NCBI GenBank assembly: GCA_002726205.1
Contig: PBSL01000050.1
Span: 1-46,409 of the forward strand
From: Planctomycetaceae bacterium
GTDB taxonomy: Bacteria; Planctomycetota; Planctomycetia; Planctomycetales; Planctomycetaceae
Direction of reading: 5' to 3'
Length of the DNA stretch: 46,409 bases
Part shown: piece by piece, positions 5,823-44,874 of the stretch
Layout: every line of letters begins with the position of its first letter
Numbering within the stretch: the first letter of the stretch is position 1
Position numbers and translations under genes: made by a program
The notes under the pieces: model-generated
What the model saw: only the letters and a program-made list of their open reading frames with translations
The model's database searches: none
What the model was told of the DNA's origin: nothing

Positions 5823-5988
5823 CGCCGTGTTCTCCGTCGGAATTGGGTTTGGCCGCGGTGCCACCTCCCAGAGCCTAGCGATCGCGGCGCGGGGCTGGCA
5901 ACCACGCTTCACGACGCTCCCTGAACCCGGGGATCCTCGAGAAGAGGCGGGTGGCCACAACCGGGAGGATCTCCATACAATCAAACTC

Positions 5989-13062: not shown

Positions 13063-13099
13063 TCGGGGTCCGGCACCCCCCTTGCCAGGAACTCCCGTG

Positions 13100-29199: not shown

Positions 29200-29412
29200 T
29201 TGCACCGGCACCGTTTTGGGTGTGGCTGTCGGGACGGGGCTGGAGGCTGGAGGATCCCCCGGCGGCCGGTGGCCGGTTGAAGGACCGTCCCGGTTCACGC
29301 GGCCTGTTCATCGATGACCCCGACAGCCCACCCAACTCCAACGCGAACAGCCCGGCGGATCCAGACGATCCACCGGGCTGTTCGACGTTTGGTCCAGGGA
29401 CCAGGCCGTCAG

Positions 29413-29919
29413 TTAGGCGTCGGCCTTCTTCTTTTTCTTCTTCTTTTTGCCCTTCTTCTTGGGCAGCTTGGCCTTCTGCTCGGCGGTCAGGATCTCGACG
29501 AACTTGGCCCGCGCAGCCTTCTGGACTGTCTGCCGCTCCTTGCTCAGTTCCTTCATCTTCGTCTTCTGATCAGCACTGAGATTCAGGGCTGTGGCGATCG
29601 CGGCGCGAGCCGCCTTGCCCTTCAGGCCGTCAGCCTTGGCCTTCTTGGCCGCCGCACTGCGGGCCTTCCTCTGCTCGGGCGTGATCACCGTGTTGATCTT
29701 CTTCTGGACGGCGGCCAACTGCGGGCCGAATTCCTTGTTGATCGCAGCCACCTGCTTCTTCTGCTCGGCCGTCAGTTCGATCCCCTTGGGAACCTTGACG
29801 GCGGTGGGCGTCCTGCGACCCTTCTTCTTCTTTTTCTTCTTCTTGTCGGCCGCGAGCGCCGGCGTGGCAATCAGCACGGCCAGCGTCAGGACCAGCAGTC
29901 CCTTCATGGCATGTCTCAT
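29413..29919 (-). CDS. Periplasmic LTXXQ-motif (Spy/CpxP-like) protein flanked by poly-lysine tracts
   Basis: Signal peptide MRHAMKGLLVLTLAVLIATPALA. Four LTXXQ-like motifs (LTAEQKK, ITPEQRK, LSADQKT, LTAEQKA). K8 and K11 runs at both ends. AGGA 6 nt upstream of the ATG at 29919. The longer track start at 29970 is less likely. Confidence 0.65.
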   Translation of the reverse strand: MRHAMKGLLVLTLAVLIATPALAADKKKKKKKKGRRTPTAVKVPKGIELTAEQKKQVAAINKEFGPQLAAVQKKINTVITPEQRKARSAAAKKAKADGLKGKAARAAIATALNLSADQKTKMKELSKERQTVQKAARAKFVEILTAEQKAKLPKKKGKKKKKKKKADA

Positions 29920-29977
29920 CGGTTGTCCTCTCATAGAAAAAAAACTCGTTGAAATTGCTGCCGACCACATGATCGGA

Positions 29978-31255
29978 TCAGCTAAAAAGTCCAGGAATCA
30001 CCGAGCCGTTGCGAACGATCATGATCGGCCGACCGGTCTTGGTGTGGTACTCGTGCGTGTGGTCAATCCCCAGGTTGTGATAGAACGACGCGGCGGCATC
30101 CGAGGGAGAAATCACCTCGCTGGCCGGCAGGGTTGCCTTCTCGTCGCTGGCACCGACCACCTGGCCGCCCTTCACACCACCACCGGCCATCAGCATGGTC
30201 ATGCAGCGGGGATAGTGGTCACGACCGCCCGGGGTGCTGCGGCTGTTGATCTTCGGAGTCCGACCGAATTCACCAGTCACGAAGACCGCGGTCGACTTCA
30301 GCAGGCCACGTTGGTCGAGGTCGGTCAACAGGGCCGCCAGCGCCTGGTCCAGTGGCGGCAGCAGACGATCCTTCAGTTTCGGGAAGTTGTCCCGGTGAGT
30401 GTCCCAACCACCGGTCGAGACCGTGACGAAGCGAATGCCGCTCTCGACCAACCGGGTCGCCAACAGGCAACTCTGACCAAACGACGACTCACCGTATTCT
30501 TCGGCCCTCGCGGCGGGTTCCTTGCTGAGGTCAAATGCCTCACGAGCCGCCTTCGAGGTGATCATCGCGTGGGCCTGGCGGCTGAAGCTGTCCAGACCAT
30601 CCAGCAACTGGCTGTCCTTCTCCAGGCCGGCAAATGTCCGGTCGAGATCCTTGAGCAGGTTCTGTCGTTTTTCGACGTCGCTGATCGTCAGTCCGTTGGC
30701 CAGGGCCATGCCGCGAACCGAGAACGGTCGTCCCTTCTGGGGTGTGGCCCCGGTGTTCAGCGGAGCGTACTTGACGCCCAGGAATCCCGGCTTCTGCCGC
30801 GTGTTGGGAATCGCCACGAACTGGGGCAACTCCCTGTCACCTGGCAGTTCCTTGCTGATCACCGAACCATAGCCGGGGTATTCCAGCGACGGCAATGGCC
30901 GTGAACCGGTGTTGATGTAGGACTGGCCGAGGGCATGGGCTCCCAGGGTGTGGCTGACGCCACGCAGGATCGCGTACTTGTCAGCACACTGTGCCAGTTT
31001 CGGCATGTGCTCGCAGATCTCGACTCCCGAGACGTTGGTCTGGATCGGATCAAACAGCCCCCGGTACTCCGTCGGAGCATTCGGCTTCAGGTCGAAGGTG
31101 TCCATATGCGAGGGACCACCGGGCAGGTTGACGAAGATCGCCGAGGTCGCCCGGCCAGGCTCCACTGCGCCGGCCGCGGCCAGTTCCCGGTACCCGGCCA
31201 GTCCCAGGCCGGCAACTCCCAGTGAACCAACCTTGATGAAGTCGCGCCGTTTCAT
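29978..31255 (-). CDS. DUF1501 family protein with TAT signal (MKRRDFIKVGSLGVAGLGLAG...)
   Basis: RRDFIK twin-arginine motif. DUF1501 blocks (TGEFGRTP, MAGGGVKGGQVVGASD). The start is trimmed to the Met preceding the TAT motif. Alternatives are at 31282 and 31405. Confidence 0.85.
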   Translation of the reverse strand: MKRRDFIKVGSLGVAGLGLAGYRELAAAGAVEPGRATSAIFVNLPGGPSHMDTFDLKPNAPTEYRGLFDPIQTNVSGVEICEHMPKLAQCADKYAILRGVSHTLGAHALGQSYINTGSRPLPSLEYPGYGSVISKELPGDRELPQFVAIPNTRQKPGFLGVKYAPLNTGATPQKGRPFSVRGMALANGLTISDVEKRQNLLKDLDRTFAGLEKDSQLLDGLDSFSRQAHAMITSKAAREAFDLSKEPAARAEEYGESSFGQSCLLATRLVESGIRFVTVSTGGWDTHRDNFPKLKDRLLPPLDQALAALLTDLDQRGLLKSTAVFVTGEFGRTPKINSRSTPGGRDHYPRCMTMLMAGGGVKGGQVVGASDEKATLPASEVISPSDAAASFYHNLGIDHTHEYHTKTGRPIMIVRNGSVIPGLFS

Positions 31256-31362
31256 CCCGTCACAGGTCTTGTGCAATGCCATCCGTTTCCATCCCTTCAA
31301 TCTCAAGAGCCCGTTGGCTTTCTGTTTCCATTCCAGACCGCAACCGCCATCGAGTACGACGA

Positions 31363-34260
31363 TCAGTGATTGACAATAAATTCTTTCGTGTTCATCAGCA
31401 CCCACAGCAGATCACGAATCCCCTGCAGGGTGTCGTCAGCCCCCTCGACATGGGCCCGCGACCGGGCCAGTTCTTTCGTCGAGGGATATCGTGTCAACGT
31501 CCTCAGGTAAGCCTGCTTGACAATATCGCTGGCATCCAGGTTGCTGACCGTCACGCCGGAAGTCTTGGGAACGACCCGTTTCTCGGCCGCCACCGCCAGG
31601 CGGGCCTGGACGTCCTTGACCTGTTTGGAGAACTTCTTGACTTCCTCGGTCTTGTTGGCCTTGCGAGCCGCGGCAACCTTCTTCCGGATTGATCGCAATT
31701 GCTGGCTCAACCGCCGTTCTTCAGCGGTCAACTTGCTGCCAACGGACTTGGCCTTCTTCAGACCCAGGCCATCAGCCACCTGCTGAACCCAGCCCTGCCG
31801 GTTCGCGGCGATCAGTTGCAGCGTCTCGCGATCATTCTGCAGAAAGACCGTCTGCAACAGGCTCGGCTCGCTCGACCGGTCGCAATCGCAGTTGCTTTCT
31901 CTGGTCGATCGCCCGAAGACGGTCAACGCGTAGGCGGCTCCTTTGCTGCGGTTTCCTCTTCGTCCGGCTCCGGCAATCGCGATCGCCCGACCATCGGTCT
32001 CGCGGTTGAGCGTCCGGGCCCGATCATCCGATGCCGTGGCCTGCTGGATCGCATCATAGGCGACCTCGGCGGGAAGCCGCCGGGGAATCGAATGGCTGAA
32101 GTTCCGCTCATCGGCCCGGTTCGTCTCGTTCGGACGCCAGCTCAACTGGTAAGTCCGGCTGCCGACGATCTCCCTGTGAAGCCACTTGATGTCGTAATCG
32201 TGCGCGATGAAGGCGCGCGACAGGAAATTCAGCAACGCCTTGTTGCTGGGCGGGTTGGCCAGGCTGTGATCATCGGGAGGTTCCACGATGCCGACGTTGA
32301 AATAGGCGGCCCAGACCCGGTTGACGAAGGCCCGGGCAAACAACGGGTTGTCCTTCCGACGCAGCCACTCCATCACGGGAACGCGGGCATCTGCGTGTTT
32401 GGTCAGGTCCACGACCTCGTCACCGAGCAATTTCGCCGATGTCGCCGCCTTGGTGACCTTGCGGCGCTTGTTGGCCTGCTGGGCCAGCTGCTTTTTCCGC
32501 TTCTTCAGCCGCACCAGTTGGGCTTCCACCTGCTTGATCTGCTTGGGGGTGGCGTTGTTCTTCTTCAGCGTCGCCAGCCGCTGCTCGGTGCGAACCAGAG
32601 CCTTCTTCAACGCGGCGGCGGCCTTGGCCTGGCTGGGCGTTTTCTTGCCCTTTGTCTTCTTGCCGGCCTTCGGTCCAGTCACGTAGACCTCCTGGAACGG
32701 AACCGTCTTGCCCTCATCAAGCGCCGCGGCAATCGCTCTTCGCTGCTGGCCACCTTTCTTGTCACCCAACTCCAGCGACGCCAGCAACTTGTTGAACTCG
32801 TCCTTCGAACTTCTGGGTGTCCCGAAACTGACCCGGGTGAAGAATCCCTGGAACTGGGTGAAGTCGTCCTTGGTCCACTGGTCAAAGGGATGCTTGTGGC
32901 ACTGCGCGCACTGGATCCGGATCCCCAGGAAGGTGTAGGCAAAACCAATCGCCCGCTCCTCGGGCTTGCGGAAATTCTTCCGGGCCCAGTAATGCGGCAT
33001 CGACGGACGATCCGAGAAACGGCCGGTCCCCTCCGGCTTGTACAGCAGGCTCATCGTCTTGCTGAACTCCGATAACGATTCGCCGCTGTTTCGGCTGGTC
33101 GCAAGCACCAGTCCCTCGACGATCTTGTCGTAGGACGTGTTGTTGCCCACGCGGTGCCTCAACCACTCGTACCAGTCCTGGCTGGCACGCCGACGGCGCG
33201 ACGGCACGACGTTGGTGAGGTTGTCGTCGTTGTTGCCGGTAAAGTCGCACAACCGGGTCGCCCACCAGGCCGAGTAGGCGGGACGCTCGAGCAGTTCCTC
33301 GACCTTCTTCTGCCGTTTTTCCGGCGCGGTGTCCTTCAGGAATGCCACGGCTTCCTCGGCCGTGGGCAACGTCCCGGTCAGGTCCAGGCTGACACGGCGC
33401 AGGAACTCCGCGTCAGTGCACACCCCCGAGGGAACAACTCCAAGTTTCCTCAATTTTTCGACCACCAATCGGTCGATCTGGGTGGGAGCTTCAACCTCCG
33501 GATAATTCTCTCCGACGCGATCCGACACGGGCTGGATCACCGAAACCGGCACCACGCCACTGTCGTAAAACGCGACCACGTGCGTATCGCCGGACTTCCC
33601 GGCGGTGACCAGGCCATCGGCGGTGACCGCCGCCACCTGGTCGTCGTTGCTCTTGAACCGCGTCAACGGGGTCACGTCTTCCCGTGTCCCATCGCTCCAG
33701 ACCGCGATCGCTTTCAACCGGTTTTTCAGGCCGGCCTTCTCGAACACGAGTTCCGTGGGACTCACCTCGAGCCGCAGCATCCGGGGGGCGTCCTTGGCCG
33801 GTCCCTTGGCACCACCGGCGATCCACCTGTGCAGCAACTGGAATTCCCAGGTCCCCGTCTTCAATCGCAGGCCGCCTTCGTGATCGACCACCTCGGTCGG
33901 CTTTTCGATCATCAGACTCTTCAGCGGATTCTCGACGCTGACCCGCGGCCCCTGCTTGTCGTCAACCGCCTTGGTCAACGCCAGGTGGTCCATCTTGAAG
34001 TCGTAACCGAACAGCGACAGGCGAAAACCACCCCGCCCCTGGAACGACCCGTGACAGGCCCGCCCATTGCAGCCAAGTTTTCCCAGCAGGGGCGAAACGT
34101 GTCGTTGAAAGTCAGGAACCTCGCTGGCCTGTTCGCCGGCAAACCGAACCGTGACTGGCGAGGCCAGCTTCGACGGAACCACCTTCTCGGCGGCGTCACT
34201 GGTCCGTGATGCCGTGGTGAAACCGACGAGCAGAAGTGTTGCAAGCAGGAACCGTTTCAT
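31363..34260 (-). CDS. Secreted DUF1549/DUF1553 (PSCyt/PSD) protein with N-terminal Big_2-like domain (965 aa)
   Basis: Signal peptide MKRFLLATLLLVGFTTASRTSDA. Cys motif LGKLGCNGRACHGSFQGRGGFRLSLFGYD. Ig-like segment. DUF1553 block (CAQCHKHPFDQWTKDDF). C-terminal PSD1-like tail. Confidence 0.85.
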   Translation of the reverse strand: MKRFLLATLLLVGFTTASRTSDAAEKVVPSKLASPVTVRFAGEQASEVPDFQRHVSPLLGKLGCNGRACHGSFQGRGGFRLSLFGYDFKMDHLALTKAVDDKQGPRVSVENPLKSLMIEKPTEVVDHEGGLRLKTGTWEFQLLHRWIAGGAKGPAKDAPRMLRLEVSPTELVFEKAGLKNRLKAIAVWSDGTREDVTPLTRFKSNDDQVAAVTADGLVTAGKSGDTHVVAFYDSGVVPVSVIQPVSDRVGENYPEVEAPTQIDRLVVEKLRKLGVVPSGVCTDAEFLRRVSLDLTGTLPTAEEAVAFLKDTAPEKRQKKVEELLERPAYSAWWATRLCDFTGNNDDNLTNVVPSRRRRASQDWYEWLRHRVGNNTSYDKIVEGLVLATSRNSGESLSEFSKTMSLLYKPEGTGRFSDRPSMPHYWARKNFRKPEERAIGFAYTFLGIRIQCAQCHKHPFDQWTKDDFTQFQGFFTRVSFGTPRSSKDEFNKLLASLELGDKKGGQQRRAIAAALDEGKTVPFQEVYVTGPKAGKKTKGKKTPSQAKAAAALKKALVRTEQRLATLKKNNATPKQIKQVEAQLVRLKKRKKQLAQQANKRRKVTKAATSAKLLGDEVVDLTKHADARVPVMEWLRRKDNPLFARAFVNRVWAAYFNVGIVEPPDDHSLANPPSNKALLNFLSRAFIAHDYDIKWLHREIVGSRTYQLSWRPNETNRADERNFSHSIPRRLPAEVAYDAIQQATASDDRARTLNRETDGRAIAIAGAGRRGNRSKGAAYALTVFGRSTRESNCDCDRSSEPSLLQTVFLQNDRETLQLIAANRQGWVQQVADGLGLKKAKSVGSKLTAEERRLSQQLRSIRKKVAAARKANKTEEVKKFSKQVKDVQARLAVAAEKRVVPKTSGVTVSNLDASDIVKQAYLRTLTRYPSTKELARSRAHVEGADDTLQGIRDLLWVLMNTKEFIVNH

Positions 34261-34991
34261 GGTCTCGACCTGTCCTTCGTGTTGCGTTGATCTTTCCGCG
34301 TCCGAGCGGCAGAACCCTTCGGATTTTTCGTCTTCCGGTTCACCTTGCGCACCGTTGCCTTCGCAGAGGAACCAGCTGATATTCTCGCTGTCCGCTTCAA
34401 ACGTTTCAACTCCCGATCGGCCGCCAGGTCCAGATCCTCCAGCGACCGCAACTGCGACTCGATCCGTTCAATCCGTTCCCGAGAGCGTTTGCGATCCTGT
34501 GTCAGCAACTGCCGCCGCAACTGGGCACGTTCTCGCAATGTCTGCTTGAGCTGCTTGTCGAGCCGGGAATCCGGCCGCACCATCGATCGGGCGACAAGCA
34601 ACCGGGCCTCGGATTCGAGTTTCCAGAGGTTCAGGAGTATTTCGTGGCGATCGGGATGGCTCTTCCTGGCTCGCCCCAGGCGTTCAGCCGTCCGGGACAA
34701 TTCCGCGACAGCCTTGTCGTAGGCCGCCTGCTTCCCGGCGGTCTTGAGTCGCTCGACCAGCCGTGCCAGTTCCCGGTGGTGCTTCCTTGCGAACGCCAGG
34801 GCCTGCTTGATCTGCCGTTTGCTCAGTTTCTTGTTCTTGCGGACCTTGGACCTGGGTTTCGAGGCCGCCGCATCGACCGTCGATGCGGCTCCCGGCCGCG
34901 CAGCAGCCGCTGACGTCGGCAGAGGTGATTGCGGCAACGCCCCGCCACACACGGCGACAGCAAGACCCAGCGATGGCAGCAGACGCATCAC
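34257..34991 (-). CDS. Secreted basic coiled-coil protein (244 aa), hypothetical
   Basis: Signal peptide MMRLLPSLGLAVAVCGGA, then a K/R/E-rich heptad-like sequence. ATGA overlaps with both neighbours. Confidence 0.55.
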   Translation of the reverse strand: MMRLLPSLGLAVAVCGGALPQSPLPTSAAAARPGAASTVDAAASKPRSKVRKNKKLSKRQIKQALAFARKHHRELARLVERLKTAGKQAAYDKAVAELSRTAERLGRARKSHPDRHEILLNLWKLESEARLLVARSMVRPDSRLDKQLKQTLRERAQLRRQLLTQDRKRSRERIERIESQLRSLEDLDLAADRELKRLKRTARISAGSSAKATVRKVNRKTKNPKGSAARTRKDQRNTKDRSRP

Positions 34992-35512
34992 TTGCCATCC
35001 TCCATTGCATCATCCGAAAGCGACACCGCCGCAATCAACCACTCGGGCACAACCAGCGGCTCGCCTTCGTCGACTGTCACCACCTCGGAAGTTTCGACCG
35101 GACTTCTCTCGCCCCCCTCGGTCCACACCGCCATCAGCGTGTCGGCTTGCCTGACCGATTCCTCGTCCTCGACAAGGCGGCGACCATCCGTCGCGGCACC
35201 ACCCCACAACAGACCGATCGCCAGGACCAGGCACACCGAGGCGGCCAGCAGTGCACCCAAGCCCCGCCGACGCGGAGGTGTGTCAGATCCTGTCGTCATC
35301 GCAACCGCTGGCCGCGCGGCCGAGATGACCTGCACCAGTTCCACGGCAGCGACCACGGCCTCGCACGCCTCGACATCGCCGGCCGACAGACGCGATTCCC
35401 ACGCCGCCAGCGACTCGGCATCGAGTTCCCCGGCTACATAGGCGAATGCCAACCAGCCCGCGTCAGTTGTCCCGCCATCCGGGCCATTCGTGTTGTTACT
35501 GGATTCCATCAT
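34988..35512 (-). CDS. Anti-sigma factor (single-pass membrane protein)
   Basis: N-terminal anti-sigma-like helical domain (WLAFAYVAGELDAESLAAWESRLSAGDVEACEAV), one TM helix (LGALLAASVCLVLAIGLLW) and a periplasmic tail. Overlaps the ECF sigma stop (ATGA). Confidence 0.65.
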   Translation of the reverse strand: MMESSNNTNGPDGGTTDAGWLAFAYVAGELDAESLAAWESRLSAGDVEACEAVVAAVELVQVISAARPAVAMTTGSDTPPRRRGLGALLAASVCLVLAIGLLWGGAATDGRRLVEDEESVRQADTLMAVWTEGGERSPVETSEVVTVDEGEPLVVPEWLIAAVSLSDDAMEDGK

Positions 35513-36048
35513 CGGTCCACCTCGTCTCGATCCCTGTCGGCCAACTGCCTTCGCAGCACGGCCAACGCCGACCGCATTCGTGTCAAAACCGTCCCCAGCG
35601 GTGTCTCCAGTTCCTCGGCAATCACCGCGAAAGTCTTGTCCTGGTAAATTCGTCTGCGAACCACTGCCTGCTGTTCCGGTGAAAGTTGTTCCACTGCTTC
35701 CCGCACGGTTTGAATCGACTCGTCCAGGCTGACCAGATCCTCGGGTGTGTCGGTTTCCGGCGGCAAGTACCCGGCGATCTTCTGCAGGCTGCGGTTATGG
35801 ATCTGCCGTTTCCGCCCGGCCAGCATCGCCTCGTTGTACGCCACCCGGAACAGCCACCCCTTGAGGGTCTCGCTCCGAGCCGTGTGTCCAGCCTCCATCG
35901 CACGCGTGAACGTCACCTGCACCAACTCGTCGGCCAACTCCGGGTCACGGACAACCCCCAACAGGAACGACCGCAACCGACCACCATGTTGGTGATACCA
36001 CTGGGCCACTTGGGCAGGGTCGATTCGATCTTCGTCCCGCGACGTCAA
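35509..36048 (-). CDS. ECF (group 4) RNA polymerase sigma factor
   Basis: Region 2 (LRSFLLGVVRDPELADELVQVTFTRAMEA...WLFRVAYNEAM) and region 4 HTH (LSPEQQAVVRRRIYQDKTFAVIAEELETPLGTVLTRMRSALAVLRR). The only available start is the TTG at 36048, directly after an in-frame stop. Confidence 0.85.
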   Translation of the reverse strand: MTSRDEDRIDPAQVAQWYHQHGGRLRSFLLGVVRDPELADELVQVTFTRAMEAGHTARSETLKGWLFRVAYNEAMLAGRKRQIHNRSLQKIAGYLPPETDTPEDLVSLDESIQTVREAVEQLSPEQQAVVRRRIYQDKTFAVIAEELETPLGTVLTRMRSALAVLRRQLADRDRDEVDR

Positions 36049-36204
36049 ATCCCCGACTACCCCGCTTTCGTCGCCCAGCTTTGTCTTGATGCGCCAAGCA
36101 CCGGATTTATTGGGGGCTATTTTGTGTTTTCATAACCGGGGAACATATCAGGCCTTACGTGAGAATCGAAAAGGCCACTCCGGTCAATCCTGACGTTCCC
36201 CGCG

Positions 36205-37095
36205 TCAGGGAACGTCGAGTAACCTCAGGTCGAAACGACCGCGGCGTTCGCCGACAAAGACGATGCGTTTGCCGTCGGGATGCCATGCCGGAAAGTCATC
36301 CCGTTCGCGGCTTTTCGTGATCCGGCTGATCCCGGACCCATCGACGTTCATCAGGTAGATCTCGCGATTGCCGTCCCGATTCGAGACAAACACGATCCGC
36401 TTTCCGTCGGGCGACAAACGTGGGCGAACATCCTGGCCACGATGGTGAGTCAATCGATGGACGGCCGATCCGTCGGCAGCCGCCACGTAGATCTCGTAAT
36501 TTCCGTCACGCGTCGATCCGAACAGCAGCATGCGGCCGTCGGCTGACACGCTCGGCCAGTTGCAGAGGCCGGCACCGTCGACGAGCAGCTTGCGATCCTT
36601 TCCAGCGGTATTGCACGAAAAGATCTTCTGTCGTCCGCCCTCGGCAAACGCGTAGAGCACGCGACGCCCATCGGGAGTGAATGCTGGACTGCGCATCCCG
36701 GAGAAACCCGATGCCGGTGGAATCTCGGCCTGGACATCCTCGCGGGTGTCATCGATCACCATCCCGACACTCGCCGCACTGCGGCTTTGCAGGTAAGCGA
36801 CGAACCGCCCGTCCCGGGAAAAGGCCGGTTCGAGTTCCGAGCGGGTCTCGTCCTTGTGGATCGGCTGTTCGGTCCCGTCGACAAGATTTCTCTTGACCAG
36901 TTGCAGTTGCTCGGGCCGCGCCTGCACGACGTAGACCAGCGTGCGGGCGTCGAGGAATACCGGGTCACGTTTGAAGCGATGATCGTCGGTCAACACCCGG
37001 TCGGCGGCAACGGCCTCGCCGGAAAAAACCAGCAGCGAGACGACACCCACCAGTTCGAGAAACCGGTGGGAATGAAGCGATCTAGAGCAGGTCAT
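36205..37095 (-). CDS. Periplasmic PD40 (TolB-like) beta-propeller repeat protein
   Basis: Signal peptide. At least 5 PD40 repeats (EPAFSRDGRFVAY; SPAFTPDGRRVLY; WPSVSADGRMLLFGSTRDGNYEIY; RPRLSPDGKRIVFVSNRDGNREIY; FPAWHPDGKRIVFV). Confidence 0.8.
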   Translation of the reverse strand: MTCSRSLHSHRFLELVGVVSLLVFSGEAVAADRVLTDDHRFKRDPVFLDARTLVYVVQARPEQLQLVKRNLVDGTEQPIHKDETRSELEPAFSRDGRFVAYLQSRSAASVGMVIDDTREDVQAEIPPASGFSGMRSPAFTPDGRRVLYAFAEGGRQKIFSCNTAGKDRKLLVDGAGLCNWPSVSADGRMLLFGSTRDGNYEIYVAAADGSAVHRLTHHRGQDVRPRLSPDGKRIVFVSNRDGNREIYLMNVDGSGISRITKSRERDDFPAWHPDGKRIVFVGERRGRFDLRLLDVP

Positions 37096-38419
37096 AGATC
37101 ACGCGGCCCCCGGACAGAACATTCATTTCGGCGCGTTCCCGTGTCGAGATCCCGGCAAGTTCGGTGATCGTGGTCCCGACCATCAGTGGCGTGATCGGAG
37201 AGTCGATGGGATGTTCACCGAGCCTGTCGCTGCGGCCGATCACCACACCGGTCGGCACCCCCGCCCCGGACCACAGCGAGAAGTAGCACTGGGGCCAGTG
37301 ATCGCGCGCCGCCCGCGGGTTGATCTTGGGCGTCCGCCCGAACTCGCTGATCACAACGACCAGCGTCTCCTCGAGCAAGCCGCGGGTTTCCAGGTCACCC
37401 ATCAACTCGGGCAACACGCGATCCAGGATCGGGCAGTGCCGATCCATGAGCATCTCGAAATTGTAGATGTGCGTGTCCCATCCGAAGTCGAACGCCGGCG
37501 TGATCGCCTCGACTGTCTGGCTCCAGTTCAACTGGACATACGGCACCCGCGCCTCGATCAACCGTCGTGCCACCAGGGCGCTTTGACCGAACGTCGTGTA
37601 GCCGTAGCGGTGCCGGGTCTCCTGGGACTCGCGGGTGACGTCGAACGCCTCGCGGGCTTTCGGATTCGAAAGCAGGCCGTAGGCGAGCTGGTAGGACCGT
37701 TCCCAATCGGCAATCCCTGCCGCATCCAGTTGCCGGCGGGCCGTGTCGATCCGGTGCAGGAGAAGGCGACGGTCCGAGATGCGATTGGGAGTGATACCGT
37801 CGAGCAAATTCAGCGAGGGCAGGTTGACCGAACCGTCATTGCTGACAACGACCTGGAACGGGTCCCATGCCTTGCCGAATGTCCCCCCACCATAGCCCTC
37901 CACGATCCGGACACTGTCCTGGATGATCCCGCGACCGACCGACTGAAACGGTGGCAGGTCGCCGCGACGACCCCGGTGCCTGGCGACAATTGCTCCGAAA
38001 TTCGGCTGCACCGGACCGGGTTTTTCGTGGAATCCGGTCAGGGCCACCGTGCCGCCGTCGGGGTGGCCGGATTGCGACGAGACATGCGAACGAACCAGCG
38101 CGAACTTGTCGCTGATCGAGGCGATCCGCGGCAGCAGATCGGTCACGTGGACCCCCGGTGTGCGGGTGGCGATCGCTGAAAACGGTCCCCGGTATTCCGG
38201 TGGTGCGTCGGGCTTGGGATCAAACGTGTCCAGGTGAGACGGAGCGCCCCAGAGCCAGACCAGCAGGACCGACTTGGCACGGGCAGCCCTGGCCGGCGGG
38301 GTGGGCGCCGCCAAGGCGGGCCGACCCAACAGCAAGGGCAGGGAACCACCCATCTTCAGGAACGAACGGCGGGTGGGCCCCGAACATCCCCCGGCTGAGA
38401 ATCGACCGACGTTCAACAT
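37082..38419 (-). CDS. DUF1501 family protein with TAT signal (no adjacent DUF1549/DUF1553 partner on the same strand)
   Basis: ...PTRRSFLKMGGSLPLLLG...; DUF1501 blocks (ISEFGRTP, SGAGVPTGVVIGRSD). Its stop overlaps the PD40 gene start by 14 nt. Confidence 0.85.
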   Translation of the reverse strand: MLNVGRFSAGGCSGPTRRSFLKMGGSLPLLLGRPALAAPTPPARAARAKSVLLVWLWGAPSHLDTFDPKPDAPPEYRGPFSAIATRTPGVHVTDLLPRIASISDKFALVRSHVSSQSGHPDGGTVALTGFHEKPGPVQPNFGAIVARHRGRRGDLPPFQSVGRGIIQDSVRIVEGYGGGTFGKAWDPFQVVVSNDGSVNLPSLNLLDGITPNRISDRRLLLHRIDTARRQLDAAGIADWERSYQLAYGLLSNPKAREAFDVTRESQETRHRYGYTTFGQSALVARRLIEARVPYVQLNWSQTVEAITPAFDFGWDTHIYNFEMLMDRHCPILDRVLPELMGDLETRGLLEETLVVVISEFGRTPKINPRAARDHWPQCYFSLWSGAGVPTGVVIGRSDRLGEHPIDSPITPLMVGTTITELAGISTRERAEMNVLSGGRVIYDLL

Positions 38420-38508
38420 GCCGTTGTCACGTGCCTCGACTGTTGCGGGAGGTCTCCACCCGGTCCAGTTTGCCAGACCGAACCGGCCAACTCAAGGTGA
38501 TCCCGGAG

Positions 38509-38538
38509 TTGAGTGAGCCTCACCTGTACCGATATATT
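38509..38538 (+). promoter_or_regulatory. Candidate sigma70-type promoter TTGAGT - 18 nt - TATATT upstream of the module-C DUF1549/DUF1553 gene
   Basis: Read ggagTTGAGTgagcctcacctgtaccgaTATATTgtagac in the 132-bp divergent intergenic region. It is ~60 nt upstream of the proposed GTG start. Confidence 0.35.
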
Positions 38539-38599
38539 GTAGACTGCTGCATTGCCCTCCCCGCCGGGTTTTGGCCTCACCACCTGCCAGGACTGTTGC

Positions 38600-41023
38600 G
38601 TGCGTTTGACTCTCCCCACACTCTCAGTGCTGATGCTGCTGACCCCGGTCGTTGCCGAAGATGCGATTCGGCCGGCCGAGAGCATCCAGGTCACCCCCAG
38701 TCCGCTGCGGTTGGGAGGAGCCAACCGGCAAAGACAGGTCCAGGTCACAGCCCGGGCCGCCGATGGCACGGTCTTTGATGTCACCCACCAGGCCACCCTG
38801 ACCGTCGTCGACCGATCGCACGCGGTGCTCGACGGAACAACGGTTCGTGGCGTGGCCGACGGCCAGACACGGCTGCAGGTCCAGTACGCGGGCCGCAGCG
38901 TCGAGGTCCCGATCCAGGTCCGAAATTTCAACCGTTTTCCGCCGGTTCACTTTCTCAACGACATCATGCCGATTCTCTCCAAGCTCGGCTGCAACAGCGG
39001 AGGCTGCCACGGCAAACAGTCCGGGCAGAATGGTTTCCGGCTGTCGATCTTCGGATTTGATCCCCGGGCCGACTACGACGCACTGGTCAAGGAAGCCCGC
39101 GGCCGCCGTGTCTTCCAGGCCTCGCCGACTGGCAGCCTGCTGGTGGCCAAAAGCACCAACCGCCTGGCTCACGGCGGCGGTGCCCGCACCCGTGTCGGCA
39201 GCATCGACCACGAGCTGCTTTCACAGTGGGTCTCGCAGGGAGCTCCCTGGGGAAACGACAATTCGCCGCAGATCGCGTCGATTCAGATCGAACCAGCTCG
39301 CCGACAGCTCGGGGCGCGGGCCGAGCAACAGTTGCTGGTGACCGCCACCTTTTCGAACGGTTCAACCCGCGACATCACGTCAGCAGCGGCCTACGCGAGC
39401 AACGCCACGCTGATCGCGGATCTCGAGGGAGCCGGGCGGATCCACACCGGCAGCGTTCCCGGCGAGGCGGCCATCATGGTCAGTTACATGGGCCACGTGG
39501 CCACCGCCCGGATCACGGTCCCCCGCGAAGATCGCCCGAAGACGTTCCCGCTCCTGCCGGTCCACAACCGGATCGACGAGTTCGTCTGGGCCAAGCTGAA
39601 GCGGATGGGCATTCTTCCGTCGCCAATCGCTTCCGACACCGTCTTCCTGAGACGACTGCACCTGGATAGCCTCGGCACGCTGCCTTCTCCGCAGGCCGTG
39701 AGGAGCTTCCTGGCCGACAAGCGTCCGGACCGTCGGCAACACGCGATCGACGCCGTGCTCACACGCCCCGAGTTTTCCGATTACTGGGCACAGAAATGGG
39801 CCGACGTGCTGCTGGTCGATCGTGATGATCTCGGCGAACGAGGAGCCTTCGAGTTTCATCGCTGGTTGCGACAGCAATTGCTGACAAATCGGCCCTACGA
39901 CGAGTGGGCCCGCGAATTGCTGACCGCGACGGGAAATTCCGGCCGCTATGGACCGGTCAACTTCTTCCGAGCCGCCCGCACCCCGGTCGAATTGACCCGC
40001 AGTATCAGCCAGGCTTTTCTTGGCATTCGCCTTGATTGTGCCCAGTGCCATCATCACCCGTTTGAAAAATGGGGCCAGGACGACTTCTATGGCATGGCCG
40101 GGTTCTTCAAGGGACTCCAGCACAAGACACTCGGTCCCGGTCGTGAACTGGTCTTCCACAGCGGGTACCAGCCAACACGCATCCCGTTGAGCGAACGACT
40201 TGCACCAACCCGGCCTCCCGGCGGCCAGGTGATCACCGATTTCGGCGAGACCGATCCACGCGTCCGTCTGGCCAGGTGGGTGACCGGTCCGAAAAATCCC
40301 TACTTCGCCCGCCTGGTAGCCAACCGGATCTGGAAGCACTTTCTGGGACGAGGACTGGTCGAACCCGAAGATGACTTTCGTTCGACCAATCCGGCCACCA
40401 ACCCTGCCCTGCTTGATTATCTTGCTGACCAGGTCGTCGCCGGTGGTTTTGATCTCCGGGCCGTGATGAAACAGGTGCTCGCTTCACGGGTCTACCAGTT
40501 GTCGAGTGTCCCCAACGAGACCAACCAGGGCGACGAGCAGAATTACTCGCATTTCCTGGTCAAGCGGCTGCCGGCGGCGGTGTTGATGGACGCCATCAGC
40601 GAGGTGACCGGTTCTCCCGAGCCGTTCGAGGGCATGCCGCGGGGAACCCGTGCCATCCAGTTGTGGGACAACCGCCTGCCGAGCTATTTCCTGGACACCT
40701 TCGGCCGTTCGGAACGCCGTTCGCCCTGCGAGTGCGGCAGTTCGACCGAGCCGACGATGGCCCAGACGCTGCACCTGATGAATGCTCCCGAAATCGACGC
40801 GAAAATCGTCGCCCCGGGAGGACGGATCGACCGGTTGATCATTGCCGGGGCCCCATCGCGACGGATCGTCGAGCAGTTGTGTTTCTCGGCACTGGGCCGT
40901 GGCCCCAATCCACGGGAACTGCAGGCTGCCGAGCGGCTGTTTGCCGGGAGGACGCCTCGCCGAGCCGCCGAGGACTTCCTGTGGGTGCTGCTGAATTCCT
41001 ACGACTTCCTGTTTGTCCATTAG
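38600..41023 (+). CDS. Secreted DUF1549/DUF1553 (PSCyt/PSD) protein with N-terminal Big_2-like domain (~807 aa)
   Basis: Signal peptide MRLTLPTLSVLMLLTPVVA (GTG start). The track ORF starts at the TTG at 38552. Cys motif LSKLGCNSGGCHGKQSGQNGFRLSIFGFD. DUF1553 block CAQCHHHPFEKWGQDDF. C-terminal PSD1-like tail. Confidence 0.85.
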   Translation: MRLTLPTLSVLMLLTPVVAEDAIRPAESIQVTPSPLRLGGANRQRQVQVTARAADGTVFDVTHQATLTVVDRSHAVLDGTTVRGVADGQTRLQVQYAGRSVEVPIQVRNFNRFPPVHFLNDIMPILSKLGCNSGGCHGKQSGQNGFRLSIFGFDPRADYDALVKEARGRRVFQASPTGSLLVAKSTNRLAHGGGARTRVGSIDHELLSQWVSQGAPWGNDNSPQIASIQIEPARRQLGARAEQQLLVTATFSNGSTRDITSAAAYASNATLIADLEGAGRIHTGSVPGEAAIMVSYMGHVATARITVPREDRPKTFPLLPVHNRIDEFVWAKLKRMGILPSPIASDTVFLRRLHLDSLGTLPSPQAVRSFLADKRPDRRQHAIDAVLTRPEFSDYWAQKWADVLLVDRDDLGERGAFEFHRWLRQQLLTNRPYDEWARELLTATGNSGRYGPVNFFRAARTPVELTRSISQAFLGIRLDCAQCHHHPFEKWGQDDFYGMAGFFKGLQHKTLGPGRELVFHSGYQPTRIPLSERLAPTRPPGGQVITDFGETDPRVRLARWVTGPKNPYFARLVANRIWKHFLGRGLVEPEDDFRSTNPATNPALLDYLADQVVAGGFDLRAVMKQVLASRVYQLSSVPNETNQGDEQNYSHFLVKRLPAAVLMDAISEVTGSPEPFEGMPRGTRAIQLWDNRLPSYFLDTFGRSERRSPCECGSSTEPTMAQTLHLMNAPEIDAKIVAPGGRIDRLIIAGAPSRRIVEQLCFSALGRGPNPRELQAAERLFAGRTPRRAAEDFLWVLLNSYDFLFVH

Positions 41024-41070
41024 TCCTGCGAGAAACGCCAAGGACCGGCACGCCTGAAACGAGGACTTTC

Positions 41071-42402
41071 ATGATGACATCTCTCACCCCCTCCCATTCC
41101 CCTGACGGCATCAATCGCCGCGCCATGCTCACCACCGGCAGTCTGGCCGGACTGGGGCTGGCCGAGGTGCTGTGGATGCAGGAGGCCTTTGCCAGGGCCA
41201 AGGGCAAACCGGTCAAGGACATCAACTGCATCTTCCTGTTCGCCCTGGGTGGCATGCCGCACCAGGACATGTGGGATCTCAAGCCCGGGGCCCCGTCGGA
41301 GGTTCGCGGCGATTTCACTCCGATCGCGACCCGGACGCCGGGTGTGCAGATCTCCGACGTTCTGCCGGGTGTGGCCACGGTGACCGACAAGCTGTCGATT
41401 CTTCGCAGCATGACTCACGTCGACAGCGACCACGGTCGCGGTTACCACGTGATGATGACCGGCAAGAAGCCGGGTGCCGGCGATTTCAACGGCAACCAGA
41501 ACAACAACCACCACCCGTGCCTGGGCTCGATGATCTCGCACCTGGGCACTCCCGGCGAGTTGCCTCCCTATGTCAGTGTCCCCAACTTCCTCAACAGCGG
41601 AGGCCCCTCGTTCCTGGGCGCCAGCCACGGACCGTTCGTGATCGAAACCGATCCGGCCGCTCCGGACTTCGCGGTCCGGGACATCTCGCTGCCGACGTCG
41701 GTTTCGACCGACCGCAGCGCCCGCCGGCAGTCGGTACTGCGCGAGCTGAACCGCTTCGAGCGACAGTCCGAAGCCGTGGGACGACAGGTCCGCTCGCTGG
41801 ACACTTTCTACAAGAAGGCCGCCGGGTTGATGACCTCGCGCAAGGCCAAAGAAGCCTTCGACATCCACAGGGAATCAGACAAGACCCGTGCCGAGTACGG
41901 CATGACGTCGGTGGGCCAGTGTTGCCTGCTTGCCCGGCGACTGGTCGAGGCCGGTTGCCGCTTCGTGGCCATCGAGAACGGTCACTGGGACACGCACCGC
42001 AAGAACACCTACAGCCTCCGCGACCTGCTCTGCCCGTCCTTTGATCGTGCCGTACCCGCGATGATCAATGATCTTGATCAGCGCGGCCTGCTCGATGACA
42101 CGCTGGTGATCATCTCGACCGAGTTCGGCCGGACACCGAAAATCAACCAGCTGGCCGGCCGTGACCACTGGCCCAACGTCTTCTCGATCGCAATGGCCGG
42201 TGGTGGTGTCAAGGGGGGACAGGTCATCGGTGCCAGCGACAAGCAGGCCGGCACGGTCGCCGATCGGCCGATCACCCCCGGGGACATGGCCGCCACGGTG
42301 CTGAACCTGATGGGAATTGACCACGAGCTGATCCTTTACACGCCCCTGGGACGTCCGGTCCGTCTGGTCGAAAACGGTCGACCGATCAACGAACTGACCT
42401 AG
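41071..42402 (+). CDS. DUF1501 family protein with TAT signal (443 aa)
   Basis: MMTSLTPSHSPDGINRRAMLTTGSLAGLGLA; STEFGRTP; MAGGGVKGGQVIGASD. GAGGA RBS 8 nt upstream of the ATG at 41071. The track ORF N-terminal extension is rejected. Confidence 0.88.
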   Translation: MMTSLTPSHSPDGINRRAMLTTGSLAGLGLAEVLWMQEAFARAKGKPVKDINCIFLFALGGMPHQDMWDLKPGAPSEVRGDFTPIATRTPGVQISDVLPGVATVTDKLSILRSMTHVDSDHGRGYHVMMTGKKPGAGDFNGNQNNNHHPCLGSMISHLGTPGELPPYVSVPNFLNSGGPSFLGASHGPFVIETDPAAPDFAVRDISLPTSVSTDRSARRQSVLRELNRFERQSEAVGRQVRSLDTFYKKAAGLMTSRKAKEAFDIHRESDKTRAEYGMTSVGQCCLLARRLVEAGCRFVAIENGHWDTHRKNTYSLRDLLCPSFDRAVPAMINDLDQRGLLDDTLVIISTEFGRTPKINQLAGRDHWPNVFSIAMAGGGVKGGQVIGASDKQAGTVADRPITPGDMAATVLNLMGIDHELILYTPLGRPVRLVENGRPINELT

Positions 42403-42438
42403 CCCCACCCCAGACACTTTCCTACCCGAGCCGACACC

Positions 42439-44874
42439 GTGATTTCTCGCCCGACCACAGGCCCGTGTGCCGCCCTGCTGCTTGTCGGCCTGCTGCTTGC
42501 CGGAGCACCGGCGGCCGCGGTTGCTCAACCCAAACCCGGCTACAGCCCGTCGAGCACCCATATTTTTCCCGCCGGAGGTCAACGGGGCACGACGGTGCGG
42601 GTGCGAGTCGGCACCGAGTGCGCTCCGCCGGAGACCGATTTCCTGCTGTACGGTCAGGGTCTGAAGACCGGTGACGCAATGGTGGCCGACTGGTGGTCGG
42701 CAACCAGCCTCACCCGCCGCCTGCCACGCAGCCTCGGAGAACCCGACCCACGCCGGAAACCGACCGAGGTACCGATCTCCTACCCCAGGGAATGGGCCCA
42801 GGAGATCACGATTGCCGATGACGCACCACTGGGAGCGTCACGCTGGAGGATCAGTTGTGCCCAGGGCGGTACGGCCACTCGTCCGTTTCTCGTCGGCAAC
42901 CTGCCCGAACACATCGAGTCCGAATCAAACTCGGCACCGGAACGGGCCGAATCGCTGACGCTGCCGGTAACACTCAACGGGCAGATCTACGGTGAACGCG
43001 ATGTCGATTTCTTCCGGGTGCCGCTCAAACAGGGCCAGGTGCTGGTGTGTGACGTCCTGGCCAGCCGCATCGACTCGCGACTCGACCCGGTCGTCCAGTG
43101 GCTCGATGCCGACGGCCGGTTACTCGACTGCCAGGAAGCCCGGGTGGGCAACGATCCGATTCTCGCCTTGAAGGCTCCCCACGACGGCGACTACCTGCTG
43201 AGAGTTTCCAACATCACCTTCCACGGCAACGCCGCCTGCGTCTACCGGATCACGCTCACCACCCAGCCGGTCGCGCTCTACACTTTTCCCAGTGGCGGCC
43301 AAGCCGGTACGACCGGGACCTTCGCGTTTCACACGCTGACCGGCCAACCGGGACCACCGACCTTGCAGCGGCACCAGCTCACGTTGCCGGCCGCCGAGGG
43401 GTTCTTTCAGCCCCCGGGAAGACTGGCACCTCCGCTGATCGTCGACGGGCGTGAAAACCGGACCGAGACCGAACCGAACAACTCCACCGAGCAGGCCCAG
43501 GCGGTTCCGCCGACTGCGACCCTGCACGGACGACTGGCCAACGCCGATGATGTCGATCGTTTTGCCGTGACCGTCCGCAAGGGACAGCGTTTCACGTTCC
43601 ATGCCGCGGCCTATCCCCCGGGATCCTCCACCCTGCCGGTGCTGACGCTGCTCGACCAGCAGGAGAAACGGCTAGCCCGCGCCCAGGCCATCCAGGATGT
43701 CGACCGCGAGGCACGAATCGAATGGACGGCTCCGGCCGACGGCCGGTTTGTCCTGGAGATTCGCGACCTGCGATTCGGTTCACGTGGCGGCGATGACTTC
43801 CTCTACCGACTGACGCTGCAACCGGCAGCACCCGACTTTGCCCTGCACGCCGGCGCGGATGCACTGAATCTGACGCAGGGAACCGATTCGGCGATCACGC
43901 TGCGGGTTGGACGGACCGGCGGCTTCAAGGGGCCGATCCAACTGGCCGTCGCCGGGTTGCCCAAACACGTGACCTGCACGCCGTCGGAAATCGGAGCCGG
44001 AGCAACGTCGGTCAAGTTGATCTTCAAGGCTGCTGCCGAGGCCGCGTCGCAGGCCTACCCCCTGTCGATCACGGCCACGGCCAAGATCGACGGCCGCCAG
44101 GTCACTCACCGCCTCGACGCCAAACACAAGGGCCTCGTGGCCGCGGGGACCGGATCAAGACACTTTCACCTGACCGTCTGCCACAAGCCGGTCTTCCGGA
44201 TGTTCTGCTTCGAAGCCTACCTGTACGCCCACCGGGGAACGATCTTTCCCTACGTGATGACCGTCGAACGACTCGATGGATTCGACGAGCCAATCACCGT
44301 CCAGATCGGCGACCGCCAGAACCGGGATCTCGACGGCATCGAAATGATCCCCTTCGTGATCCCTCCCGGGAAAAGTGAAGGCCGGTTGCCGATCTACCTG
44401 CCCGAGACAATGCACATCAACATCCAGTCCCAATCGCAACTGTATTCCCAGGCCTTCGCCCACTTCACCGACAAGCACGGACGTCGCCAGGCAGTCCTCG
44501 TGCTCGCCGAAAAGCGCAACATGCTCCGAACACGTCCGCTGGTCGTAAAGATGTTTCCGGTCGACGAGCAGGTTTCCGGCGAACCGGGTGCATTCGTCGA
44601 CTGCCGACTGCGGCTGAAGCGGACCACGAACTTTCCGGGCCCAATGACCGTCGTACTCCACGATACCGGCGAGGTTCCGGGTTTCCTGGTCAAGCCAACG
44701 ACGATGGCCGCAGGAGCCACCTCGGCCACCGTGAAGGTCCGACTGCCGACCGGCGACGCCGCAAAGCAACCGACCACGCTGACGTTTCGGGCAACCGGCA
44801 AGATGCCCGACGGCACGGTGACAATCACCGAGAGCCGAATTCGCTACGTCCCGCCCGGGACGGCCGAGAAGTAG
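42439..44874 (+). CDS. Secreted protein with two pre-peptidase C-terminal (PPC)-like domains, hypothetical (811 aa)
   Basis: Signal peptide (GTG start) MISRPTTGPCAALLLVGLLLAGAPAAAVA. Two PPC-like segments (ESNSAPERAESLTLPVTLNGQIYGERDVDFFRV; ETEPNNSTEQAQAVPPTATLHGRLANADDVDRFAV). It lies 36 nt downstream of the DUF1501 gene. Confidence 0.6.
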   Translation: MISRPTTGPCAALLLVGLLLAGAPAAAVAQPKPGYSPSSTHIFPAGGQRGTTVRVRVGTECAPPETDFLLYGQGLKTGDAMVADWWSATSLTRRLPRSLGEPDPRRKPTEVPISYPREWAQEITIADDAPLGASRWRISCAQGGTATRPFLVGNLPEHIESESNSAPERAESLTLPVTLNGQIYGERDVDFFRVPLKQGQVLVCDVLASRIDSRLDPVVQWLDADGRLLDCQEARVGNDPILALKAPHDGDYLLRVSNITFHGNAACVYRITLTTQPVALYTFPSGGQAGTTGTFAFHTLTGQPGPPTLQRHQLTLPAAEGFFQPPGRLAPPLIVDGRENRTETEPNNSTEQAQAVPPTATLHGRLANADDVDRFAVTVRKGQRFTFHAAAYPPGSSTLPVLTLLDQQEKRLARAQAIQDVDREARIEWTAPADGRFVLEIRDLRFGSRGGDDFLYRLTLQPAAPDFALHAGADALNLTQGTDSAITLRVGRTGGFKGPIQLAVAGLPKHVTCTPSEIGAGATSVKLIFKAAAEAASQAYPLSITATAKIDGRQVTHRLDAKHKGLVAAGTGSRHFHLTVCHKPVFRMFCFEAYLYAHRGTIFPYVMTVERLDGFDEPITVQIGDRQNRDLDGIEMIPFVIPPGKSEGRLPIYLPETMHINIQSQSQLYSQAFAHFTDKHGRRQAVLVLAEKRNMLRTRPLVVKMFPVDEQVSGEPGAFVDCRLRLKRTTNFPGPMTVVLHDTGEVPGFLVKPTTMAAGATSATVKVRLPTGDAAKQPTTLTFRATGKMPDGTVTITESRIRYVPPGTAEK

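Follow-up and report, generated by a model that had tools for sequence, protein, structure and literature searches.

The gene of the extracytoplasmic function (ECF) sigma factor RpoE of Escherichia coli is autoregulated within rpoE-rseABC, where RseB is a periplasmic protein. The CnrYXH system of Cupriavidus, which deals with nickel and cobalt, combines a sigma factor, a small membrane anti-sigma whose periplasmic part is short, and an adjoining helical periplasmic sensor. CpxP docks on the CpxA sensor through a basic concave face that contacts acidic residues, and either 300 mM NaCl or a misfolded pilin dislodges it (PMC4160245). In planctomycetes and verrucomicrobia, the DUF1501 and DUF1549/DUF1553 families are present in dozens of copies per genome, and no function has come to light since their descriptions of 2004-2012 (PMC3542564, PMC5615132); pairs of DUF1501 and PSCyt/PSD1 genes have likewise been described without function in the Planctomycetes-Verrucomicrobia-Chlamydiae (PVC) superphylum (Kamneva et al. 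2012, PMC3542564; He et al. 2017, PMC5615132). In Rhodopirellula baltica, heat, cold and high salinity all induce the ECF sigma RB10049 (PMC2754498), which has been proposed as the regulator of its neighbour RB10051, a PSD1/PSCyt2 gene (Studholme 2004, as cited in Wecker 2009, PMC2754498). Here we analyse a module of six minus-strand genes (29413-36048) on a contig of 46,409 nucleotides (nt) from a Planctomycetaceae bacterium (PBSL01000050.1, assembly GCA_002726205.1), the whole of which is called the window below. The genes encode, in this order, an ECF-type sigma factor, an anti-sigma, a secreted basic helical protein (CC, for its coiled-coil character), a DUF1549/DUF1553 protein of 965 amino acids (aa), a DUF1501 protein and an LTXXQ protein. 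We consider that the module is probably an autoregulated circuit of an ECF sigma, a class-I anti-sigma and periplasmic partners, tied to one dedicated enzyme pair within one transcription unit.

A search of the literature on the DUF and PF identifiers, on ECF factors with PSCyt and on LTXXQ with ECF factors found no description of such an operon. The two comparative studies of the DUF1501 and PSCyt/PSD1 pairs cover many architectures of these pairs and mention no sigma factor (the word "sigma" occurs 0 times in PMC3542564), and the current ECF classification passes over all the families of the module in its main text. The sigma group and its gene context may already be listed in the supplements of that classification or in planctomycete ECF surveys.

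The conservation of the module is the first line of evidence. One genome per species was scanned with the 965-aa DUF1549/DUF1553 protein and 80 loci were fetched, all carrying full-length relatives (45-66% identity); to establish what else these loci contain, we ran tblastn first and iterated profiles of the window proteins second, and left loci with too little flank out of the counts. In 62 of 63 loci, each of the sigma, anti-sigma and CC genes lies upstream of the 965-aa gene and in its orientation; the DUF1501 gene lies downstream, again in the same orientation, in 62 of 62. These loci span the Planctomycetales and the Pirellulales, the taxa named being Planctomycetaceae (Gimesia, Schlesneria, Fuerstiella, "Planctomyces"), Pirellulaceae (Anatilimnocola) and unclassified Planctomycetota. 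The linkage of a sigma/anti-sigma pair to a DUF1549/DUF1553 and DUF1501 pair, which an earlier note had proposed from this stretch of DNA, thus holds in two orders. The note had also asked whether an LTXXQ gene is a recurrent terminal member, and it is, the gene being present downstream in 41 of 62 loci; it is an accessory member, absent from one third of the loci, and in the 21 loci without it the same-strand run stops after DUF1501. Independent gene calls with precomputed Pfam annotation place the same six genes in Anatilimnocola floriformis, a cultured species, and in a second complete genome, both with flanking genes unrelated to those of the window. DUF1501 is the most conserved gene of the module (59-84% identity to the window protein across orthologues, and about 70% across the two orders), the ranges for the other products being about 35-72% for the sigma, about 30-77% for LTXXQ, about 19-51% for CC and about 19-39% for the anti-sigma.

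The module could owe this pattern to the mere abundance of the DUF1549/DUF1553 family, of which the earlier note had seen one pair placed under an ECF sigma. The linkage is real, and what has to be amended is the nature of the pair, which is a sharply separate ortholog group with invariant motifs of its own. With the profile of the 965-aa protein, no orthologue falls below 1147 bits and no paralogue of the same loci exceeds 535 bits, a bimodal distribution, and neither the two other DUF1549/DUF1553 and DUF1501 pairs of the window nor its orphan DUF1501 gene have an ECF-type sigma or an anti-sigma in their operons or directly upstream. Taken together, the separate ortholog group and the sigma-free paralogous pairs argue for a specific and old module, and against a chance adjacency within an expanded family. 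It should be said that the profile of the operon sigma is family-specific and fails on the 556-aa sigma-70 protein of the window, so that the lack of other sigma matches near paralogous pairs is weak evidence, and we relied instead on Pfam-annotated contexts.

Some individual loci deserve mention. The sole locus lacking the sigma, anti-sigma and CC genes upstream of the DUF1549/DUF1553 ortholog (L078:1325-5916, 48% identity) has a sulfatase-like gene in front of it. The metagenome-assembled genome (MAG) CBN3_331.30 holds two copies of the module (L009 and L012). Their large proteins are 88% identical, against only about 62-63% for CC and the anti-sigma. Either the bin contains two strains, or the module duplicated recently and its regulators evolve fast. 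In three loci (L021:13636-17421, L050:13435-17293 and L068:12301-16094) a paralogous DUF1549/DUF1553 and DUF1501 pair directly follows the module on the same strand, and may share its regulation.

The second line of evidence is a conserved bipartite promoter motif on the minus strand at 36080..36117, with the core AATAA-N14-GCATC at 36111-36088. It was found by a bipartite-word search of the 400 nt upstream of the sigma domain, and its family consensus is gaaAATAAt-N12-cGCGCATCnTAtt. The core occurs once in the 46-kb window, for 0.00 expected (100 shuffles). Among 65 upstream regions (64 loci and the window), 47 have the exact core with its fixed 14-nt spacing at the same relative place, and the variants with one mismatch accepted by a position weight matrix (PWM) at this place raise the figure to 64 of 65. 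In 52 fetched loci the exact core is found once per locus at the same position, with one extra match within a gene. At a score of 16, a scan of both strands of the loci (1.1 Mb) with the PWM retrieves 55 sites ahead of sigma and 4 at other places, a count that mainly shows the rarity of the motif elsewhere, since the PWM was trained on the very sites it counts. A contig of a La Plata MAG is informative in this respect (L064, 308-879): the motif (score 37) stands directly ahead of the anti-sigma gene with no sigma between, which indicates that it belongs to the operon and not to the sigma coding region; the sigma of this locus has apparently been lost or moved elsewhere. The earlier note had called for a search of 36049-36204 for an ECF promoter of the GGAAC...CGT type. 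A conserved putative promoter is indeed there, with a motif other than the one expected: the GGGAAC at 36198 sits in a hairpin arm and is not conserved, and this candidate was discarded.

The layout of the six genes was read base by base. The sigma (35509..36048), anti-sigma (34988..35512), CC (34257..34991), DUF1549/DUF1553 (31363..34260), DUF1501 (29978..31282, within an open reading frame at 29978-31405) and LTXXQ genes (29413..29919, within an open reading frame at 29413-29970) all lie on the minus strand in the order that the earlier note had given, and Pfam backs the families it had named. Two of its three ATGA overlaps are present, at 35512-35509 between sigma and anti-sigma and at 34260-34257 between CC and DUF1549/DUF1553. 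The third junction, at 34991-34988 between anti-sigma and CC, reads GTGA, so that CC starts either at the GTG at 34991 (4-nt overlap, 244 aa) or at the ATG at 34988 (1-nt overlap, TGATG; 243 aa, as in public gene calls). A gap of about 107 nt had been reported before DUF1501; it relied on an internal ATG at 31255 and has to be replaced by one of 80 nt, because the N-terminus MAxHxTCDG..RRDF is kept in the orthologues and makes 31282 the most likely start, as judged by this alignment. The 58-nt gap ahead of LTXXQ is correct with a start at 29919. For the sigma gene, comparison of 66 orthologues shows filled and partly conserved positions ahead of the public start at 35976 (155 aa), which makes the TTG at 36048 (179 aa) the most likely predicted start; the public start would remove the first sigma-2 helix.

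The boundaries of the putative transcription unit are marked by two hairpins on the minus strand. The first (36133..36207; -30.9 kcal/mol, z -2.4 versus shuffles) separates the stop codon of the PD40/TolB-like gene upstream from the promoter of the operon, and is likely to be a terminator or insulator of the upstream transcription unit. The second, a perfect 18-bp GC-rich hairpin (29344..29384), is found about 30 nt past the LTXXQ stop, between convergent genes; the 96-nt stretch around it folds at -58.9 kcal/mol (z -5.8), none of 200 shuffles folds as well, and this is likely to be the operon terminator. Across loci, the first three junctions have median spacings of 8, 3 and 38 nt, with 13-15 four-nt overlaps per junction. 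The DUF1549/DUF1553 and DUF1501 genes never overlap (median gap 120 nt) and hairpins are often present between them, which makes internal regulation possible; ahead of LTXXQ an overlap is rare and the median spacing is 98 nt.

These wider gaps, together with the GC-rich hairpins between the DUF1549/DUF1553 and DUF1501 genes in many loci, would suit an arrangement of conserved neighbours that do not form one sigma-dependent operon: the sigma would then control itself, the anti-sigma and CC, and perhaps unlinked genes, with DUF1501 and LTXXQ transcribed from promoters of their own in the 80-nt and 58-nt gaps. We regard such separate transcription as quite improbable. DUF1501 follows on the same strand in every locus scored, no sigma-70-like promoter or terminator-like site was found in the two internal gaps of the window, and the 80-nt gap has no significant RNA structure (z -0.02). 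Comparison of the gaps across loci brought out no conserved word beyond the stop-codon context, the ribosome-binding site and the N-terminal codons of the next gene, and the sole strong hairpin comes behind the last gene. In other loci (for example L014, L025, L035 and L040) the gap before DUF1501 frequently contains GC-rich inverted repeats, which the window's 80-nt gap lacks. None of the Rfam families attains its threshold; the only match, a sub-threshold gyrA RNA inside the CC coding region (34827-34895, minus strand; 26 bits versus a gathering score of 45), is probably due to chance and was not retained as a known RNA element.

The first gene is predicted with confidence to encode an ECF (group 4) sigma-70 factor. 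The 179-aa protein matches the Pfam models Sigma70_r2 (aa 18-80) and Sigma70_r4 (aa 114-166), as well as r4_2, and the NCBIfam model TIGR02937 (sigma70-ECF) with 62.3 bits for a cut-off of 42.9; no NCBIfam sigma subgroup model reaches its cut-off, the best being TIGR02985 (80.9 versus 126.4 bits). The second gene, which has no Pfam family for its open reading frame, is by all signs of its sequence a single-pass class-I anti-sigma without zinc motif. It is encoded immediately downstream of the sigma, here as in the loci compared, and the profile of the family (68 orthologues) matches Mycobacterium tuberculosis RslA (3hug_B; E 6.3e-5, residues 17-75). The 174-aa protein has a transmembrane segment at about aa 82-109, found by hydropathy scan in 64 of 71 orthologues, followed by an acidic periplasmic tail (aa 110-174, nt 35185-34991) whose counterpart has a median length of about 80 aa in the orthologues. 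The tail terminates in the conserved PxW(M/L)xAAV, in which W158 is invariant and P156 and A162 are conserved. The zinc motif HxxxCxxC (zinc-associated anti-sigma, ZAS) is absent from the family consensus, which reads FExRLAxDxxACEAV; weak zf-HC2 matches were obtained for only 2 of 68 orthologues, and no FecR-type domain was found in the anti-sigma.

The third and sixth genes encode two exported proteins of small size. In CC, a signal peptide and a disordered linker precede a conserved core of five helices (aa 55-206); its motif FAxxHHPEL has a nearly invariant His. The earlier note had seen a protein without recognised family, and searches of Pfam, NCBIfam and the PDB agree that there is none; CC nonetheless belongs to a sizeable unnamed family of about 900 clusters at 50% identity. 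It is identical to the hypothetical protein CMJ65_13635 of a marine metagenome-assembled Planctomycetaceae bacterium and is found on 23 metagenomic contigs. Long CC homologues (299-414 aa) were considered as fusions of anti-sigma and CC, which would have been evidence of interaction; they merely carry longer low-complexity linkers after the signal peptide. The LTXXQ protein (168 aa) is secreted and Lys-rich, with lysine runs at both ends and four L(T/S)xxQ motifs, four being also the median among orthologues. It matches the LTXXQ model with 25.8-26.3 bits for a cut-off of 24.3, and 40 of 47 orthologues match this family, PF07813 (E<=0.01, best 2.6e-7). The family profile matches E. coli Spy (3oeo, E 6.2e-6) and CpxP (3qzc, E 0.015), and we conclude from these profile matches that the sixth gene encodes a genuine, if predicted, member of the Spy/CpxP family.

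Two small helical proteins of this kind might also be metal sensors or metallochaperones, in a metal or redox circuit of the CnrYXH or ZraP type in which the DUF1549/DUF1553 product would be a haem or metal protein. The layout of sigma, anti-sigma and periplasmic helical protein does recall cnrYXH, the LTXXQ clan has metal-related members (7 of 47 orthologues match PF13801, Metal_resist), the CC motif has its nearly invariant His, and the large protein has invariant CX4CH and CXXCH motifs. We found, however, no conserved metal-ligand pattern in the LTXXQ protein, and the fold search with CC did not retrieve CnrX, which leaves the metal circuit distinctly unlikely.

What the two proteins share with each other, and oppose to the anti-sigma, is charge. 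The periplasmic tail of the anti-sigma is negative in 64 of 64 orthologues (median net charge -15.5, about -0.18 per residue; -12 in the window), whereas CC orthologues have a median of +12 and never fall below +3, and LTXXQ orthologues have a median of +15 and never fall below +7. The corresponding values are about +1 for the sigma, about +1 for DUF1501 and about -2 for the large DUF1549/DUF1553 protein. An acidic tail with basic partners matches the documented mode of action of CpxP (PMC4160245). A compensation between the charge of CC and the presence of LTXXQ was also considered and was rejected, as the trend runs the wrong way.

The fourth and fifth genes would provide the output. The 965-aa protein comprises, in order, a signal peptide, a PSCyt1-like N-terminus, an Ig-like Big_2 domain (weak Pfam match, about aa 160-235, with matches to Lig and teneurin-like Ig domains in the PDB), DUF1549 (PSCyt2, 169.6 bits), a Lys-rich insert and DUF1553 (PSD1, 124 bits). 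The insert, a coiled coil at about aa 531-602, is specific to the lineage of the window and absent from most orthologues. PF07635 (PSCyt1) itself gives no match at E<=0.1, CX4CH replacing CXXCH in the form of CNGRACH (aa 64-70, nt 34071-34051); DUF1549 contains CAQCH (aa 451-455, nt 32910-32896) and DUF1553 contains NCDCDR. Across the orthologues, CX4CH, CAxCHxHPxD and CxC[DE]R are each kept in 80 of 80 and CNGRxCHG in 71 of 80; the conserved PSCyt1-like stretch reads LGCNGRxCHGSFQGxGGFRLSLFGYDF, and a further conserved motif of the large protein is RIQCAQCHKHPFDQW. As to covalently bound haem, what the sequence offers is the motifs, and no solved relative was found by sequence. The DUF1501 protein (434 aa, 361.9 bits) has RRDF at aa 12-15 (nt 31249-31238), with R12, R13 and D14 invariant in 50 orthologues, and its structural model, an alkaline-phosphatase-like fold with Asp/His metal ligands, matches the folds of NPP, PhoK and sulfatases. 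We predict, with good confidence, that it is exported by the twin-arginine translocation (Tat) pathway, as the RRDF motif indicates, and that it belongs, by its model, to the alkaline-phosphatase superfamily.

A likeness to phosphodiesterases and carbohydrate sulfatases raises the question of whether the module is a catabolic, substrate-sensing regulon, in which the anti-sigma and CC would sense a polyanionic nutrient (a sulfated or phosphorylated glycan, or nucleic acid) and induce the DUF1501 esterase and its partner, much as ECF/anti-sigma pairs control polysaccharide-utilisation loci in Bacteroidetes. The Ig-like domain of the large protein would fit such a role, strongly basic secreted proteins could bind polyanions, and PSCyt genes have been linked with sulfatases and carbohydrate-binding modules in published comparative work (PMC5615132, PMC3542564). 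Against this, the near-universal vertical conservation of the module, with its strongly conserved DUF1501, looks like housekeeping and not like niche catabolism. Moreover, the operon has no gene for a transporter, a TonB-dependent receptor or a glycoside hydrolase, its flanks are not conserved, and the anti-sigma lacks the FecR-type domain. We thus consider a catabolic regulon unlikely, if somewhat less so than separate transcription or a metal circuit.

Returning to the autoregulated circuit, one may propose the following scheme. The promoter AATAA-N14-GCATC would most likely be read by the operon's own ECF sigma, which would amount to positive autoregulation, and all six genes would be co-transcribed. 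The cytoplasmic domain of the anti-sigma would hold the sigma, and its short acidic periplasmic tail would be the input. In the OFF state, the exported CC, in the position of RseB, and the Spy-like protein would dock electrostatically on the tail and stabilise the anti-sigma; unfolded envelope proteins, polyanions or ionic strength would pull these partners away and bare the tail, and the sigma would be released, presumably through proteolysis of the anti-sigma. Newly made partners would then reset the system, a negative feedback such as that of CpxP on CpxA. The output would be a periplasmic machine made of a Tat-exported DUF1501 hydrolase or transferase and its large Sec-exported DUF1549/DUF1553 partner, and its target may be an envelope or periplasmic polymer containing phospho- or sulfo-esters. 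The envelope-stress or substrate-sensing meaning that the earlier note had read into the arrangement is an inference. One might go further and speculate that it is an ancestral, near-universal circuit of envelope homeostasis in the Planctomycetia which works by charge, two basic helical proteins holding an acidic tail, polyanionic or ionic-strength cues releasing it, and the enzyme pair remodelling a phospho- or sulfo-ester component of the envelope, which is unusual in planctomycetes; in this full form the proposal is tentative and we would rate it as rather doubtful.

Several observations weigh against the proposed circuit. The promoter lacks the usual ECF signature AAC / CGT, and the selectivity of its PWM was gauged on the sites used for training. 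The gap before DUF1501, never an overlap and often with hairpins, is not what is seen at the first three junctions. The fold search with CC gave no match to RseB, CnrX, Spy or CpxP, and the comparison of the CC and LTXXQ profiles is weak (probability 15%). The loci without LTXXQ have more acidic tails (p 0.001) and less basic CC proteins (p 0.0095), which is contrary to a simple substitution of one partner by the other, although these differences may only reflect phylogeny. Finally, the support for all the members comes from their sequences.

Directly upstream of the module, at 36205-38419 on the minus strand, an orphan DUF1501 gene (445 aa) overlaps a gene for a PD40/TolB-like beta-propeller protein (296 aa). 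These two genes were considered as part of the module and were excluded: they are kept only in the closest relatives (4 of 47 loci), they have no promoter motif and a hairpin lies between. In the divergent direction (38552-44874, plus strand) come a PSCyt2/PSD1 gene (807 aa, with the CX4CH motif CNSGGCH) and a DUF1501 gene (443 aa), followed by a gene for an 811-aa protein without Pfam match; the arrangement at 36205-44874 is limited to the closest relatives (L001, L007, L010, L011 and L013). At the other end of the window, a PSCyt1-PSCyt2-PSD1 protein of 888 aa, with CYSCH and CARCH motifs and PSCyt1 matched (5779-8445, plus strand), is followed after 25 nt by a DUF1501 gene (8470-9858, plus strand; 462 aa), with no ECF sigma or anti-sigma gene in the operon of this pair. 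The 556-aa protein mentioned above (3372-5042, minus strand) has C-terminal sigma-70 regions 2 and 4 and a long N-terminal extension with several helix-turn-helix matches. The region at 10861-18727 (plus strand) holds an open reading frame of 733 aa without Pfam match and then a gene whose product of 1900 aa combines DUF3686 ("ATPase involved in DNA repair", 630 bits) with DUF7902 and an AAA domain.

The module singles out, within two large families, one sharply defined and conserved ortholog pair with a dedicated switch, a promoter and two candidate modulators. The function of both families would thereby become directly testable, as removal of the anti-sigma or overexpression of the sigma in a cultivable carrier should switch the enzyme pair on. 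The analysis also defines an unnamed family of CC proteins and a new ECF-associated promoter motif, and the pattern of an acidic tail with basic partners may be a general mode of anti-sigma gating. If the reading as a charge circuit were true, it would give the two most expanded families without function of the phylum a first physiological role and a founding member.

How far, then, does the module resemble systems already described? With rpoE-rseA-rseB-rseC it shares an ECF sigma gene in first place, a single-pass anti-sigma, a putative sigma-proximal promoter and, with CC, a protein encoded where RseB would be. Neither the sequence nor the fold of CC resembles RseB/MucB, however, the highly acidic tail of the anti-sigma measures only about 65-80 residues, the module carries its own output enzymes, and its promoter motif is different. 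With CpxP and CpxA it shares a basic periplasmic protein of the LTXXQ family which is encoded within the regulon it would modulate, and a candidate docking site that is acidic; the transducer is an ECF sigma/anti-sigma pair and not a two-component system, one third of the modules have no LTXXQ gene, and docking is here a prediction. The three-part layout is the same as that of CnrYXH, but CnrX is absent from the fold matches of CC, the LTXXQ protein has no metal-ligand pattern, and the module has no efflux genes.

Within planctomycetes, the pair formed by R. baltica RB10049 and RB10051, a possible counterpart, is the case in which a link of this kind had been suggested. Its locus numbering allows at most one gene between the two, for two genes in the module, and the account of that pair in the source cited above describes no anti-sigma, CC, DUF1501, LTXXQ or promoter. 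Like the DUF1501 and PSCyt/PSD1 modules of the PVC superphylum, the present one has the two families side by side, DUF1501 bearing a Tat signal and its partner a signal peptide and a CXXCH motif; unlike those described, it is one specific ortholog pair to which a regulator, a promoter and two small basic proteins are linked.

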